Assembly (NCBI GenBank): GCA_903831095.1
Contig: CAIKWD010000026.1
Span: forward strand, 29,290 to 93,289
Length of the DNA: 64,000 nt
Source of the DNA: Candidatus Staskawiczbacteria bacterium
Lineage (GTDB): Bacteria; Patescibacteriota; Minisyncoccia; Minisyncoccales; Staskawiczbacteraceae
Reading direction: 5' to 3'
Below the pieces are notes generated by a model. It had not been told where the DNA came from. It searched no databases and saw only the letters and a list, made by a program, of their open reading frames with translations. The position numbers were made by a program, and so were the translations under genes. This document shows positions 12,107 through 58,387 of this stretch, in pieces. Within the stretch, counting starts at the first letter, position 1. The number at the start of each line of letters is the position of its first letter.

Positions 12107-12190
12107 GCCGAGGTGATGAAATTGGCAAACATGCCAGACTCAAAATCTGGTGCCCTTAAAAGCTTGAGGGTTCAAGTCCCTCCCTCGGCA
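12107..12190 (+). tRNA. tRNA-Leu (anticodon CAA), class II with a long variable arm
   Basis: Acceptor stem GCCGAGG/CCTCGGC. Anticodon stem-loop CCAGA-CTCAAAA-TCTGG gives anticodon CAA. Long variable arm, T-arm GGTTCAAGTCC, discriminator A; CCA is not encoded. Confidence 0.85.
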
Positions 12191-38497: not shown

Positions 38498-38852
38498 GGG
38501 GATGATTGTTTCGATGGATTGTTCTTTAAAGTAAGGCAAGTTGAGCTTTCTTGGGGCTCATTAATCTCCTGAGAAAAAACATAATTGCTAATTTATTTAA
38601 CTTTAATAAGCAACCAGCTTTAGCTTTTGCTTAAGCTGCATCCTTACCGATGATTCCTAATGGGCGGATCAAGGGTGTTATATTATTAGGATAGGCATCT
38701 TCATTCTCCGGGGAAATGCCAAAACTAAGGAGATAAAGCATTAAAAATTTTGCTAATTTTTTATTTAATGCTCGAAAAACAAAATCAGCTAAACTTGTAG
38801 AATTGCTTTTGAGAATTTTTCAGACGCGGTTTCAATACCGCCATCTCCACCA
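38498..38852 (+). ncRNA. ssrA: tmRNA (ssrA), about 355 nt
   Basis: 5' GGGGAUGAUUGUUUCGAUGG and 3' GACGCGGUUUCAAUACCGCCAUCUCCACCA (T-arm, acceptor, CCA). Acceptor pairing GGGGAUG/CAUCUCC. A candidate tag ORF reads ...GCU AAU UUA UUU AAC UUU AAU AAG CAA CCA GCU UUA GCU UUU GCU UAA (ANLFNFNKQPALAFA). It lies immediately downstream of smpB. Confidence 0.85.
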
Positions 38853-51681: not shown

Positions 51682-51709
51682 ATAAAAAAGCCGGCTTATA
51701 AAACCGGCT
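51682..51709 (-). terminator. Intrinsic terminator AGCCGG-TTTTATAA-GCCGGCT plus T-run, downstream of cimA/leuA
   Basis: A 6-bp GC stem directly after the stop codon, followed by TTTTTTATTG on the minus strand. Confidence 0.6.
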
Positions 51710-51715
51710 ATGCGC

Positions 51716-53287
51716 TTAGTGCGCTTTTAAAATCACATATTCTAACCCATCAGTCAGTGCTTGCAAACTTGCTTCAATGGAATCAGTTGAGCAACCGGTT
51801 GTGGTCCAATTTTCTGAACCATCGGAAAAATCAACCAAAACCCTAACCGGTTTTGCAGTTCCTTTTTCACCGGGCAAAACTCTGACTTTATAATCAATCA
51901 GTTTAACCTTTTCAAGATATGAAAAGCTGGGCATTAATGCTTTGCGTAAAGCATTATCTAATGCATTCACCGGCCCGTCGCCATCTGCAACTTGGTAAGC
52001 AATATTATTTACTCCTCCATTTATATCAACCTTAACGATGGCAGAATCTACTGGATCTTCTTGACCATGTTGCTGAGACCTTACGTCGCGGCTTAATATT
52101 TTAAAAGGACGAGCATATCCATCCTGCTGGCGCATCATTATAAGCTTTAACGAGCCGTCAGCTCCTTCAAATTGAAATCCTTTGTTTTCCAGATTTTCAA
52201 CTTGTTTTAAAACCTTTTTTGCCTGCTCAGAATCCAATAATATGCCGAATTCTTTTGCCTTGATTTCTATGTTGCTTCTTCCGGAAAGTTCTGACACTGC
52301 CACTGATGAAACGTTTCCAACCGCTTCAGGTTTTATGTGGTGATAACTGTCAGGATCCTTGGAAATTGCATTAACATGCAACCCGGCTTTATGACGGAAA
52401 GCTGAATTTCCAACATACGGCTGCTGAGAATTCAATGGAAGATTCGCTATTTCCGCAGTGAAACGAGCAAGATTTGTCAGTTGTGTCATATTCTCTTCAA
52501 GCAAACATGGCAACAACATCTTGGCCTTTAAGGCTGGAATAACAGAACAAAGATTCGCATTTCCACAGCGTTCTCCATACCCATTAACAGTCACCTGTAC
52601 TTGATCAGCACCGGCTTTAATAGCAGCCAATGAACTGGCCACTGCCATTTCACCATCATTGTGAACGTGAATGCCAATTGGTATTTCTAACTTGTTTTTC
52701 ACTTCTGCCACAATAGATTCAATTTCCCATGGCAAACTACCTCCATTTGTATCACATAATACAACCCTAGAAACTCCGCCTTCTATGGTGGCTCTTACAC
52801 AATCCAATGAATACTCATCGTCTTGCTTAAAACCGTCAAAAAAGTGCTCGGCATCAAAAAATACAGTACGCTGGTTTTCCACCAAAAATCTACAGCTTTC
52901 CCTTATAAGTCGCAAATTCTCTTCCAGTGGAACGCCCAACACTTTTTCCACATGGCGTCTAGAAGCCTTTCCAACAATGGCGACAACTTCAGTCCCAGAA
53001 TCAATCAGCATGGCTAATTGTTTATCTTCTGCTGGGTTTTTGTACTTTGCGCAAGTCATTCCAAAAGCAACAAATTTTGCATTTTTTAACTTCATCTTTT
53101 TTGCTTCCTGAAAAACTTCACTGTCTTTTTCATTTGCTCCCGGCCAGCCGAGCTCGATATAATCGACCCCTAGCTGGTCCAGTTTTTCTGCAATTCTCAA
53201 TTTGTCATCTTTGGAAAATGAAATTCCCGGCTGTTGTCCCCCGTCCCTTAAAGTCGTGTCATAAATCTCGACCATTTTTGCTTTCAT
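51716..53287 (-). CDS. cimA: (R)-citramalate synthase / 2-isopropylmalate synthase family (CimA-like, with a LeuA-type C-terminal regulatory domain)
   Basis: 523 aa. VEIYDTTLRDGGQQPGISFS, HVHNDGEMAVASSLAAIKAGA and the C-terminal LeuA dimerisation/regulatory domain. There is a strong SD (AAGGAAAGG) upstream. Confidence 0.8.
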   Translation of the reverse strand: MKAKMVEIYDTTLRDGGQQPGISFSKDDKLRIAEKLDQLGVDYIELGWPGANEKDSEVFQEAKKMKLKNAKFVAFGMTCAKYKNPAEDKQLAMLIDSGTEVVAIVGKASRRHVEKVLGVPLEENLRLIRESCRFLVENQRTVFFDAEHFFDGFKQDDEYSLDCVRATIEGGVSRVVLCDTNGGSLPWEIESIVAEVKNKLEIPIGIHVHNDGEMAVASSLAAIKAGADQVQVTVNGYGERCGNANLCSVIPALKAKMLLPCLLEENMTQLTNLARFTAEIANLPLNSQQPYVGNSAFRHKAGLHVNAISKDPDSYHHIKPEAVGNVSSVAVSELSGRSNIEIKAKEFGILLDSEQAKKVLKQVENLENKGFQFEGADGSLKLIMMRQQDGYARPFKILSRDVRSQQHGQEDPVDSAIVKVDINGGVNNIAYQVADGDGPVNALDNALRKALMPSFSYLEKVKLIDYKVRVLPGEKGTAKPVRVLVDFSDGSENWTTTGCSTDSIEASLQALTDGLEYVILKAH

Positions 53288-53357
53288 AATCTTTTCCTTT
53301 CCTTATTAAATTTTCAAGTTGCTGTCAAAAAGAGATTTTTTAGAAGCACCAGCCCCT

Positions 53358-53418
53358 AAAAAACAAAAACCTCTTTTTGAGAAGAGGCGCTTTTTCTTTT
53401 AATGAAAACGCTCCTTCT
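53358..53418 (-). promoter_or_regulatory. Attenuator RNA structures: antiterminator segment AGAAGGAGCG and intrinsic terminator CCTCTTCT-CAAAA-AGAGG plus a T10 run, upstream of cimA
   Basis: The terminator stem lies at 53370-53387 with the T-run (an A-run on the plus strand) at 53358-53369. AGAAGGAGCG can pair with 9 of 10 positions of the terminator 5' arm CGCCUCUUCU. Confidence 0.6.
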
Positions 53419-53466
53419 CTAAGAGAGGTTAATAATAATTATGTTTTGTGAAACTGTATAATTCAT
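53419..53466 (-). CDS. Leader peptide MNYTVSQNIIIINLS (15 aa) with four consecutive Ile codons: Ile/Leu-responsive attenuation leader for cimA
   Basis: A manually translated small ORF 40 nt downstream of the ruvA stop, read ATG AAT TAT ACA GTT TCA CAA AAC ATA ATT ATT ATT AAC CTC TCT TAG, followed directly by alternative hairpins and a terminator. Confidence 0.6.
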   Translation of the reverse strand: MNYTVSQNIIIINLS

Positions 53467-53505
53467 GCTTACTTTTAACTTACGCCAACCCAATATGTTT
53501 GTCAA

Positions 53506-54063
53506 CTATTTCCCTAGGGCTTTTAACGCGATTTTTATACGCTCTTCGCTATTTTTAATATTATCTGGTACATGGTTTAAAGCATCTTTGGCTTGCTGTT
53601 TGGAAAAACCAAGTTGCATTAAAGCTCCTTCTGCCTCGTCGGCATTATCTTTCTTTTGCCCTAGCATTTTTATTTTGCCTGTAAGTTCTAAAATAATTGT
53701 CATAGCTTTTTTAGAACCAATTCCAGGTATGCCTTCAAAAATCTTTTCGTCCTGTTTTAAAATCCTGTCTTTTATCTTATCCAAAGAACCCAAGGCTGAA
53801 ATATCCAAAGCAGACTTTGGACCAACTCCGCGTATGTCCATTAAAGTTTCAAAAAATTCCAAACCTTCGTAAGTTGGAAAACCATAAAGATCCAAAGCTT
53901 CCTCCTTCACATTTTGGTATATAAAAAGCTTGATTGGCTCGCCAATTTCTGGTAAAGTTATCATGCTCTGGCGGGACAAAAAAACCTTGTAGCCAATATT
54001 GGCCACTTCAACTATAATAAATTTGTCACGCTTTAGTATGATTTTTCCGTATAAATAAGATAT
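53506..54063 (-). CDS. ruvA: Holliday junction DNA helicase RuvA
   Basis: MISYLYGKIILK...VEVANIGYKVFL OB domain, HhH motifs (GIGSKKA, IRGVGPKSA) and a C-terminal domain. The start is set at the internal Met; the ORF track gives 54099. Confidence 0.85.
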   Translation of the reverse strand: MSYLYGKIILKRDKFIIVEVANIGYKVFLSRQSMITLPEIGEPIKLFIYQNVKEEALDLYGFPTYEGLEFFETLMDIRGVGPKSALDISALGSLDKIKDRILKQDEKIFEGIPGIGSKKAMTIILELTGKIKMLGQKKDNADEAEGALMQLGFSKQQAKDALNHVPDNIKNSEERIKIALKALGK

Positions 54064-56092: not shown

Positions 56093-58387
56093 CTAATTTT
56101 TCTTAATTTTGTCTTTAACCTTAGCAATTTCCTCTTTGAGCTTATCAATCTTCTTTTTAATTTCACTAGCCTCTTTTTTTTGAAAAAACTTTCTCCCATC
56201 TAATAATGTTTTCTCTAAAGAATCCAATGATGACTCCAAATTTTCTTTTGACTTTTTTCTGTTAATATCATTTACAATACGCGCAATCTGTAAATTTATG
56301 TAATCCTCTGTTGCCTCTTTGCGTATTTTTTCCATCTTTTCATCAAGCATTTTTATTTTAGAAAGATCAACCCCACCCTCTTTTGCTTCCTTGATATTTA
56401 GGATTAATTTATCAACCCTGCTAGGCAAAACTGTTTTACCAGATTTTAAATCTAAATTGAACTTAGTTAATTGTTTTTTAACATAAGCTGAATCAATAGA
56501 TTTTTTTTCTTCTTCTTTTTTATTTATCTTTTCGCTTTTTCTTACAGTTTTTTTAACTGGTTTTTCGTCCTCTACTTCTAATTCAACAGTCTCTGTTGTG
56601 CTAATACCTAATTCTCCAAGTGAATTAGCCTTGTTATTTGACTTTGTTAATGCTTTATCATCTTCTAGATTTTCCGCTTTAGATACAATATTTTCTGCAG
56701 TTGTAACTTGGCCATTCTTACTTTCAGGCACCTCACCTGCTTCTTTTTCAGTTGGTTTCTCTAAACTATTATTTTTTAACCGTTCTGACATCATTCTGTT
56801 CGCTTCTTCATTTAAAACCATCAATTTATTCCACTTTTCAGTTGTTGCTACACCATCGCCCTCCATTATCAACTTTTTCCTCTCAGCCATTAATTTTTCG
56901 AAAAGAACATCTCCTAAGGGCATCCTATTATAATCATCATAGTTGAAATTTACATTTGGCGCCATTTTTTCCTCTGGCTTTGGATCTTTTCCCTCACTAT
57001 TTGGTTCTCCAGTCTTTGGCAAAACTGGCTCATCTTGTCTTTTTTCTTCAGATCCCAGAGTTTTCAATATGATTGGTCTCGCTGTTTCTGGCTCAACCGG
57101 GTTAGACTCATCTTTTGATTTTTCATCGGGTGGCAAGTTTGGCACAGCTTCTTCTGTTTTTTTAGGCCTAAAAAATTTAAGCTTAGGGGGTTTTATCGCT
57201 TCAGGTTCAACTGGCGGGATGATTGTCGACTCCTTATTTTCTGTGGGCTTTTTATCTTGCTTATTTTTTATACTTTCGTCAAATTCATTTACAGCTTGCC
57301 AAATTATTTCTTTTGCACAAGCATTTTTAGTATCTACTAATTTTTTCCTTGCTGAAGCAACTTTTTGATTTGCCATCTCTTCTGCTTCTTTACTTGTATC
57401 TTCTACAGCTTCTTTCAAAAATTTTTCAAAAAAATCTTTTTTACTATCATATGTAAAAACTTCACCACTCAATATTTTTTCTACTGATACTTTTTCAATT
57501 TTATTTTTTTTAGAAAACCAAAAATTTGATTTTTTAGCTTCTTTAACAACATATCCACCATTTATTAGCTTATCAAAAACAATAGTCCCTTCACTTCCTT
57601 CCAATCCTAACTTATTTTTCTCTTTTTCCATAAACTCTTCTATTTGTTCTTCTTTTAAGCCTGCATGCGTAAACTCAAAAATCCTTACAGCTCTTTCATG
57701 ATCCCTTTGTTTAATTTCTTCTTTAAATTTTTCTATCTTCCCCTGTCTATATGCCTCTATGGCTTTTTCCCCTCTAATAATATGCAACCCTTCTTCATTT
57801 AATTTTTTTATAGTTGCATATTTCCTCAATTTTCCAAGATTTTCTTCCCCATTTTTTAAATTCCTAAATTCTCGTGCTACTTCTTTAACTGACACTTTTA
57901 TATCTTTGTCTTCTTTATCAAGAATTTCCTTCGTAAGAAAATCTGCTGCATGTTTCTTTTCTTCTTCTGTTTTTTCAACTTTTACCCTCTCTGGTCTTAC
58001 CCATTCCTTGCTCGCTCCAATATTTCCCTCTGCATTATCATTTTTTTTATCTGAAACTTCTGTATTATCTACACCATTTATACTTTTCTTAAGTTTTTCT
58101 ATTTCTTCCTTATCTGCAGGCGAAATTTCTGGCTTATTAATTAAAGGTTTTTCATCACTTTTTCTTTCTGGAAATGGAACGGGTATCGCATTCCCTGCAG
58201 TTTCAACATATGATTTTTTACCATTCAAAATATCCCAAGCATCTTCTGGCTTAAGTTGACTAATATTTTCTTTGTTCAAACCTAACTCTCCCAACTTTTG
58301 TCTCATACCATTAGTAATCATTAAAGGCACTTTGACAGATTCCTCTTTATTATCTTTTTCTCTATTATCTGAATTTATTTCTGACAT
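56093..58387 (-). CDS. Large hypothetical K/E-rich, low-complexity coiled-coil protein
   Basis: 764-aa ORF. No catalytic motif recognised. Confidence 0.4.
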   Translation of the reverse strand: MSEINSDNREKDNKEESVKVPLMITNGMRQKLGELGLNKENISQLKPEDAWDILNGKKSYVETAGNAIPVPFPERKSDEKPLINKPEISPADKEEIEKLKKSINGVDNTEVSDKKNDNAEGNIGASKEWVRPERVKVEKTEEEKKHAADFLTKEILDKEDKDIKVSVKEVAREFRNLKNGEENLGKLRKYATIKKLNEEGLHIIRGEKAIEAYRQGKIEKFKEEIKQRDHERAVRIFEFTHAGLKEEQIEEFMEKEKNKLGLEGSEGTIVFDKLINGGYVVKEAKKSNFWFSKKNKIEKVSVEKILSGEVFTYDSKKDFFEKFLKEAVEDTSKEAEEMANQKVASARKKLVDTKNACAKEIIWQAVNEFDESIKNKQDKKPTENKESTIIPPVEPEAIKPPKLKFFRPKKTEEAVPNLPPDEKSKDESNPVEPETARPIILKTLGSEEKRQDEPVLPKTGEPNSEGKDPKPEEKMAPNVNFNYDDYNRMPLGDVLFEKLMAERKKLIMEGDGVATTEKWNKLMVLNEEANRMMSERLKNNSLEKPTEKEAGEVPESKNGQVTTAENIVSKAENLEDDKALTKSNNKANSLGELGISTTETVELEVEDEKPVKKTVRKSEKINKKEEEKKSIDSAYVKKQLTKFNLDLKSGKTVLPSRVDKLILNIKEAKEGGVDLSKIKMLDEKMEKIRKEATEDYINLQIARIVNDINRKKSKENLESSLDSLEKTLLDGRKFFQKKEASEIKKKIDKLKEEIAKVKDKIKKN

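Follow-up and report, generated by a model that had tools for sequence, protein, structure and literature searches.

A putative isoleucine-codon transcription attenuator upstream of citramalate synthase in Patescibacteria

The classical leader-peptide attenuators of E. coli and Salmonella (trpL, hisL, leuL, thrL, ilvL and ivbL) place a short ORF rich in cognate codons upstream of a regulated biosynthetic gene, let the position of the ribosome choose between terminator and antiterminator hairpins, and terminate by default both without translation and after complete translation. The locus presented here is predicted to share each of these properties. It differs from the classical systems in that its leader lacks a Shine-Dalgarno sequence and has a near-leaderless start, that its stop codon falls exactly at the junction of its first two pairing segments (S1 and S2), that its untranslated RNA is predicted to form one nested hairpin rather than side-by-side 1:2 and 3:4 hairpins, and that its host belongs to the Patescibacteria; it also shows no sequence or covariance-model similarity to the Trp, His, Leu, Thr and Phe leaders of Rfam. 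The ilvL and thrL leaders mix isoleucine codons with those for valine/leucine or threonine, whereas the leader described here is an isoleucine-only one. T-box riboswitches likewise read tRNA charging through a choice between terminator and antiterminator. They bind uncharged tRNA directly and require longer leaders (more than 200 nt) that contain a specifier loop and a T-box motif, in contrast to our leader, which has neither element and gives no match to RF00230.

Leader-peptide attenuation had been called characteristic of Proteobacteria in an earlier note on this DNA, a view that proved too narrow: as far as the available parts of the two sources go, it has also been described in Actinobacteria (PMC1262725), and the ilv genes of S. 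aureus carry a Leu-rich attenuator peptide (PMC5794164). Within the same parts of these sources, both cases resemble ours in extending the mechanism beyond Proteobacteria and in concerning branched-chain amino acid genes, and they differ from it in sequence, codon specificity and lineage (PMC1262725, PMC5794164). In mycobacteria, leaderless polycysteine sORFs (the Cys 'ribulon' of Canestrari et al.) act on translation, according to the accessible portion of the preprint (bioRxiv 10.1101/834739). As described in that portion, they are like our leader in being leaderless, in carrying a run of codons for a single amino acid, in remodelling downstream RNA through stalled ribosomes, and in placing one sensor design before several different genes; amino acid and phylum differ, and the hairpin and U-tract found here predict an action on transcription instead. 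Searchable literature yielded no report of leader-peptide attenuation in CPR/Patescibacteria or for cimA, and nothing relevant on citramalate synthase of Parcubacteria. The mechanism is textbook knowledge, and the novelty lies in the family and its lineage, in the way a near-leaderless sORF is joined to an intrinsic terminator within a nested fold, and in the unexpected range of regulated genes.

The element lies on the minus strand at 53466-53358 of the window (the whole stretch of 64,000 nt that was analysed, 34% GC), where sequence inspection resolves a 15-codon ORF, four pyrimidine/purine segments (pyrimidine S1 and S3, purine S2 and S4) and a U-tract. The ORF, which reads ATG AAT TAT ACA GTT TCA CAA AAC ATA ATT ATT ATT AAC CTC TCT TAG, begins 39 nt downstream of the ruvA stop codon (TAG, 53508-53506), and the earlier description of a 15-codon, Ile-rich ORF on the minus strand after ruvA was accurate. 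The leader and the transcription unit that it heads comprise the following features:

53419..53466, minus strand: leader peptide ORF, 15 codons plus TAG, peptide MNYTVSQNIIIINLS (ATG 53466-53464, stop 53421-53419)
53431..53442, minus strand: candidate sensing codons ATA ATT ATT ATT, Ile at positions -7 to -4 relative to the stop
53421..53430, minus strand: S1, AACCTCTCTT, pyrimidine segment with a second, coding role (Asn-Leu-Ser and the first stop base); partner S4
53405..53419, minus strand: S2, GAGAAGGAGCGTTTT, purine segment and predicted antiterminator 5' arm, with compensatory GC↔AU changes in its upper part
53379..53393, minus strand: S3, AAAGCGCCTCTTCTC, predicted to serve the antiterminator as 3' arm or, alternatively, the short terminator as 5' arm
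53369..53377, minus strand: S4, AAAAGAGGT, 3' arm of both predicted terminator forms, pairing with S3 or S1
53358..53369, minus strand: U-tract TTTTTGTTTTTT of the predicted intrinsic terminator, from sequence, terminator scan and conservation
51716..53287, minus strand: cimA, citramalate synthase, 523 aa, with Shine-Dalgarno sequence AAGGAAAGGA at 53303-53294
51689..51709, minus strand: terminator-like hairpin and T-run that appear to close the leader-cimA transcription unit

Directly after the leader TAG comes AGAAGGAGCG (53418-53409), followed in order by an AT-rich loop, GCGCCTCTTCTC, AAAAAGAGG and T5GT6, which runs to 53358. The core of S1 is AACCUCUCUU, spanning the last three sense codons of the leader ORF; that of S2 is GAGAAGGAGCG, that of S3 CGCCUCUUCUC and that of S4 AAAAAGAGG, with the U-tract behind it. 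The leucine codon at the end of the isoleucine run, previously counted with the sensing run, belongs to the stem segment S1. A computational terminator scan detects a hairpin and U-tract between the leader ORF and cimA, namely GCCTCTT-CTCAAA-AAGAGGT followed by the T-run that ends at 53358; the terminator claimed earlier is there, although its T-tract is T5-G-T6 and not the T10 that had been given. The downstream gene had been assigned to the CimA/LeuA family and is a true citramalate synthase, scoring 593 bits against TIGR00977 (cutoff 450) with HMGL-like, HCS_D2 and LeuA_dimer domains. Citramalate synthase catalyses the opening step of the pyruvate route to isoleucine.

Considered by itself, the run of isoleucine codons is not beyond chance in a window of 34% GC: (ATH)4 occurs seven times where 3.1 occurrences are expected, a count reached in 6 of 100 shuffles. 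The fold of the leader has a z-score of -2.35. The significance of the element comes from its conservation in relatives and not from the isoleucine run or the fold z-score alone. When the window was scanned for sORFs with amino-acid runs and a terminator, this leader alone had a -10 box at a leaderless distance. Rfam searched over the whole window at gathering level returned no leader family, T-box or riboswitch, its matches being a tmRNA (110 bits) and a tRNA, both on the plus strand (38498-38852 and 12107-12190, respectively). Over 53200-53600 at E up to 10 there was likewise no T-box or riboswitch, and the matches were spurious miRNA-like hairpins; Phe_leader was the leader family that came closest, with 18.3 bits (E = 1.4) where its gathering score is 55.

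Relatives were gathered by two routes. By protein similarity, the CimA of the window falls in a clade of 56-93% identity that includes L001, a Candidatus Staskawiczbacteria MAG (Patescibacteria/Parcubacteria group); outside this clade identity is about 53%, in Chloroflexota, Nitrospirota and other phyla. The element stands upstream of cimA in 7 of 7 loci of the clade that were fetched by protein similarity alone, and these orthologous leaders, together with 69 unique copies overall, bear out the conservation of the small ORF and of its isoleucine run. Their leader peptides are:

L001: MNYIISKSIISIIINLS
L081: MNLSRNIIIISIINPS
L082: MNCATAQNLINIIIINLS
L084: MNYIITRVIINIIIIHLS
L170: MNSAAIKNIFGIIIINLS
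L171: MNYRVSKNIIISIINLS
L172: MKRYFRANIISIINLS

The gene 5' of the leader varies among loci, and in L001, L082 and L170 it is another gene with its own terminator. Because the upstream gene differs, with a terminator of its own in L001, the element goes with the downstream unit (cimA) and not with ruvA. The second route was a metagenome scan with the pattern CTCTTAGAGAAGG-N(12-42)-CCTCTTCTC, which returned 84 stretches; after removal of duplicates, three chance matches to the pattern (L095, L135 and L156) and five damaged copies, 69 unique intact leaders remained. The pattern sets only the last codon and the stop of the ORF, yet it also sets parts of S2 and S3. With a covariance model, matches were obtained to a single copy in the window, to those in L170-L173 and to the damaged copies, and to none of 79 cimA loci from other (non-CPR) phyla. 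At three of these 79 loci there is an Ile-rich sORF upstream of cimA, probably by chance, and at one a T-box core motif. A diverged leader, MPFQSCFKHLLINIIIIIKPLLGKGRFPIRN in L173 (protein route; CimA 53% identical), scores 74.7 bits with the model and retains the isoleucine run. L173:1-3063 carries tandem cimA paralogues (525 and 520 aa) with this leader between them, and its ORF crosses S2 before stopping. Copies can also be disrupted: a palindromic insertion of about 60 nt (cccggttaaataa...ttatttaactgggt) lies between the isoleucine run and S1 at L097:1837-1964 and L098:2828-2953, where it truncates the leader ORF and looks like a miniature mobile element, and the leader ORF is wholly lost in L111 and L136, so the element can decay.

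The leader frame is open in all 69 leaders and 15-18 codons long in 68, while the other two frames carry stops in 69 and 68 of the 69. Isoleucine makes up 35% of residues in the leader frame against 9% and 1% in the other frames, and counted back from the stop it occupies position -4 in 69/69, -5 in 68/69, -7 in 62/69, -9 in 57/69 and -8 in 48/69, with a fixed spacing of three codons between the run and the stop. Where one of the variable isoleucine positions is replaced, the substitutes are serine, asparagine, threonine or arginine and almost never leucine, valine, phenylalanine or methionine, a pattern that points to selection for isoleucine codons as such, not for a hydrophobic peptide. The N-terminal half of the peptide is variable, and its C-terminal NLS is set by stem S1.

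The leader appears to carry its own promoter, immediately behind ruvA:

53500..53505, minus strand: -35 box TTGACA of the leader's own predicted promoter, right after the ruvA stop codon
53477..53482, minus strand: -10 box TAAGTT, separated by 17 nt from the -35 box and by 10 nt from the ATG

Of the 69 leaders, 58 have a promoter-like site with 9 or more of 12 positions matched (TTGACA being exact in 49/69), and in 46 of these 58 the -10 box lies 9-10 nt ahead of the ATG. With the -10 box so close to the ATG, the transcript should start 2-4 nt before the AUG, which makes the ORF near-leaderless. The position profile of the 69 leaders contains no Shine-Dalgarno sequence for the leader ORF, and we infer that translation would begin from a leaderless start 2-4 nt from the 5' end; in the same genomes murE shows leaderless geometry too. 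A second promoter between the leader and cimA was considered at a TTGACA-like box (53328-53323) and rejected, as a spacing of 17 nt from it reaches the Shine-Dalgarno sequence and not a -10 box in all relatives.

In the free RNA of the window the lowest-energy fold is a single nested hairpin, S1:S4 around S2:S3, at -24.2 kcal/mol and ending at the U-tract, and RNAalifold recovered the same nested fold independently. The antiterminator and terminator pairings claimed earlier are present, although in this minimum they form one long hairpin and not two separate stems. The antiterminator can compete with the terminator, as had been suggested: the 2:3 stem (-14.5 kcal/mol) beats the 3:4 stem (-7.9 kcal/mol), and it takes a ribosome on the invariant isoleucine codons for the antiterminator to form. 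A classical S1:S2 hairpin exists and is weak (-3.6 kcal/mol); our model does not need it. We mimicked the ribosome by masking the 5' part of the RNA and folded all 69 leaders with ViennaRNA. Each condition gave one outcome in 69/69 leaders: S4 was paired, as in a terminator, in the free RNA; an A-site on Ile -4 or -5 left S4 unpaired and S2:S3 standing alone; an A-site on the stop codon led to the short S3:S4 terminator; and a stall further 5', at -7 or -9, gave the terminator as well. Read-through is thus predicted for a ribosome leading edge between -3 and about +5 nt from the stop, a range that, with any assumed footprint of 11-16 nt, places the A-site on the two invariant isoleucine positions, -5 and -4 (give or take one codon).

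S3:S4 pairing holds at 99.8% over the 69 sequences, the AGAGG of S4 is present in 68/69 although the search pattern did not impose it, and the U-tract is conserved among relatives. At the top of S2:S3 two pairs vary, GC↔AU in 11 sequences and UG/UA↔AU in 10, and the observed count of double-sided changes in this stem was reached by none of 500 shuffles. In L173, moreover, S2 reads AGGGAAGGGG and is matched by a changed S3, CCUCUUCCCC, with the same three-state behaviour. Covariation is visible at these two pairs and in L173 only, and the invariance of S2 and S3 is partly one of ascertainment in the copies found by pattern. The cores of S1-S4 hardly vary and are conserved in sequence well beyond pairing needs; such invariance is expected, because each segment pairs with two partners and S1 also codes.

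From the observed anatomy, conservation, covariation and thermodynamic behaviour we regard the element, with a probability of about 0.8, as an Ile-codon-dependent, ribosome-mediated transcription attenuator that senses the supply of charged tRNA-Ile. In this model, a promoter right after ruvA would start a transcript almost without 5' UTR that opens with the 15-codon ORF, whose last isoleucine codons sit 4-5 codons ahead of the stop. Without translation, or once the ribosome is gone, S1:S4 and S2:S3 would form the long hairpin at the U-tract and transcription would stop. A ribosome at the TAG would cover S1 and S2, leaving S3 and S4 to form the short terminator, with the same result. When Ile-tRNA is scarce, a ribosome would stall with Ile -5 or -4 in its A-site, covering S1 and leaving S2 free; S2:S3 would then form alone, S4 would be left without a partner, and RNA polymerase would continue into cimA. 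Termination at the U-tract and a response of expression to isoleucine are what we infer from sequence and folding. The ribosome-stalling interpretation of the earlier note draws support from the conservation in relatives and from the three-state masked folding in 69/69 leaders, and the weakness of the short 3:4 terminator is a point against it.

Other explanations account for parts of these data. The hairpin and U-tract could be merely the terminator of ruvA, with the small ORF a chance product of an AT-rich spacer, and indeed the window holds no other terminator between ruvA and the hairpin, nor is its four-isoleucine run significant on its own. We consider this extremely improbable, given that the element has its own conserved promoter and stands behind other, self-terminated genes in L001, L082 and L170, and that frame and isoleucine positions are conserved in 69 copies that are all distinct rows and not assembly duplicates; the hairpin may in addition stop read-through from ruvA, which would leave the ORF unexplained. 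Conservation of the ORF and the hydrophobicity of its product would also suit a functional micro-peptide, such as a membrane peptide or toxin, with its own terminator and no role as a sensor. Here the variable N-terminal half, an NLS end dictated by S1 and the polar isoleucine replacements all speak to the contrary, and typical membrane toxins are longer than 15-18 residues. No promoter lies between the leader ORF and the next gene, and in masked folding the invariant isoleucine codons are the only ribosome positions that open the terminator, so that we judge a micro-peptide very unlikely. Hardly more credible is a switch set in trans by a tRNA (as in T-boxes), a small ligand or an RNA-binding protein, to which the ORF would be incidental. 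The conservation of S1-S4 beyond pairing needs is what such a factor would favour, and T-box control is usual for branched-chain amino acid genes in Firmicutes and some other phyla (PMC2494555). The leader, however, matches no T-box and, spurious hairpins apart, no other Rfam family with E allowed up to 10; it is too short, at about 110 nt including a variable AT-rich loop, to accommodate an aptamer, and has a conserved frame, isoleucine codons and a fixed three-codon spacing to the stop that a trans factor would leave unexplained.

A further alternative keeps the mechanism and changes the signal: abundant isoleucine codons would report general translation or nutrient status in place of feedback on isoleucine synthesis, and the leader would be a starvation switch for whatever gene stands behind it. 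This draws on the genes found downstream across relatives. That cimA is the regulated gene, as had been proposed, holds for the window; in most relatives the leader precedes something other than a full cimA, which follows it in only about 12 unique loci. At about 12 others the first ORF encodes some 150-190 aa with the LeuA allosteric domain only (PF08502: 76, 60 and 26 bits), and at most of the remaining loci it belongs to one of two small-protein families without a Pfam match, a Cys-rich 'C..C...PLFPxDY...CPxCGG' family (zinc-ribbon-like, 57-107 aa, 2.9% Ile) and a 'GG..V...F.WD...W' family (70-105 aa). The slot between leader and murE thus holds four unrelated types of cargo (L086-L169; for example L088, L114, L162, L116, L152 and L103), and no other genes of the isoleucine pathway were found nearby. 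Two of the four types, CimA and its allosteric domain PF08502, are nonetheless tied to branched-chain amino acids, and the specificity for isoleucine codons is strict; a general nutrient signal therefore seems unlikely to us.

In the window the sensed amino acid and the metabolic role of the regulated gene agree; in the family as a whole they agree only in part. In other phyla the neighbours of cimA, named from reading their sequences, are leuB, leuC, leuD and aspartate kinase. Probes for these gave no matches in 579 kb of clade sequence including the window, a null result that concerns this clade sequence only and does not imply absence from the genomes; locally, cimA is an orphan. Because the regulated ORF of most relatives is not Ile-biosynthetic and no leuBCD/ilv match occurs in the 579 kb, the physiological logic by which low isoleucine would lead to making isoleucine is putative. 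A tentative and broader possibility, which we hold to be less probable than not by a clear measure, is that the leader serves Parcubacteria-type CPR bacteria as the shared sensor of an isoleucine-starvation 'ribulon' and guards a fixed, exchangeable slot beside murE, the cargo of which may by lineage be citramalate synthase, the isolated allosteric domain, or zinc-ribbon-like or 'WD..W' small proteins.

The architecture around the slot is compatible with a self-contained unit. Synteny is nearly constant (ruvA / leader-ORF1 / murE-like / nif3-like), slot ORFs have 39-47% GC against 34% for the window, and a terminator (GC-rich hairpin and T8) follows ORF1 in 42 of 50 loci. We discarded the reading in which murE is the actual target of the leader, on account of this terminator and of murE's own extended -10 promoter and leaderless start; the leader unit appears insulated from an independently transcribed murE.

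To our search, the locus provides the first sequence-level evidence for classical ribosome-coupled transcription attenuation in bacteria of the candidate phyla radiation, where an attenuator would imply tight transcription-translation coupling, working intrinsic terminators and initiation on leaderless sensory mini-ORFs. It defines an RNA family of at least 69 members, with alignment and covariance model, that is absent from Rfam. It also places an apparently orphan citramalate synthase of a reduced genome under predicted isoleucine-specific control, a point of relevance to the question of whether some CPR bacteria make isoleucine precursors or trade them, and singles out three sets of uncharacterised small proteins that isoleucine starvation probably induces. 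Should the tentative ribulon proposal be true, reduced and supposedly auxotrophic organisms would monitor tRNA-Ile charging for a previously unknown starvation response, and the orphan CimA would have a role other than, or upstream of, a complete isoleucine pathway.

Several further observations concern the stretch between the terminator and cimA (53364-53311, minus strand), where two more features are found:

53335..53364, minus strand: second hairpin, -12.9 kcal/mol, with the U-tract reused as its 5' arm; present in about half of the relatives (long form)
53311..53334, minus strand: conserved box CTCTTTTTGACAGCAACTTGAAAA, between terminator and Shine-Dalgarno sequence; its 5' part can pair with S4

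The second hairpin is missing from about half of the relatives, apparently by deletion between two T-runs, and these retain the box. Just 5' of the Shine-Dalgarno sequence this box reads CTCTTTTTGRCAGTTCTTTGACAAC, and its first part resembles S1.

Among the neighbouring genes, the cimA of L001 (L001:4001-5661) aligns in two frames, residues 4-460 and then 458-522, a frameshift that marks either a pseudogene or a long-read assembly error. Between cimA and murE the window carries a 95-aa ORF (51613-51326, minus strand) with its own terminator-like hairpin at 51297-51281; it has no Pfam or NCBIfam match, and among related loci its only homologue is on the contig of a 93%-identical CimA (P0001). 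A 764-aa ORF beside uvrB (56093-58387, minus strand) likewise gives no Pfam or NCBIfam match. The murE-like product itself has 393 aa, without the N-terminal Mur ligase domain. Its gene is preceded by a conserved TGTGnTAAATT with the ATG exactly 7 nt on (51262-51242, minus strand; in the same place in about 45 related loci), an extended -10 promoter that adjoins the T8 of the preceding terminator, and this arrangement suggests that the murE mRNA is leaderless and that leaderless initiation may be common in the clade.
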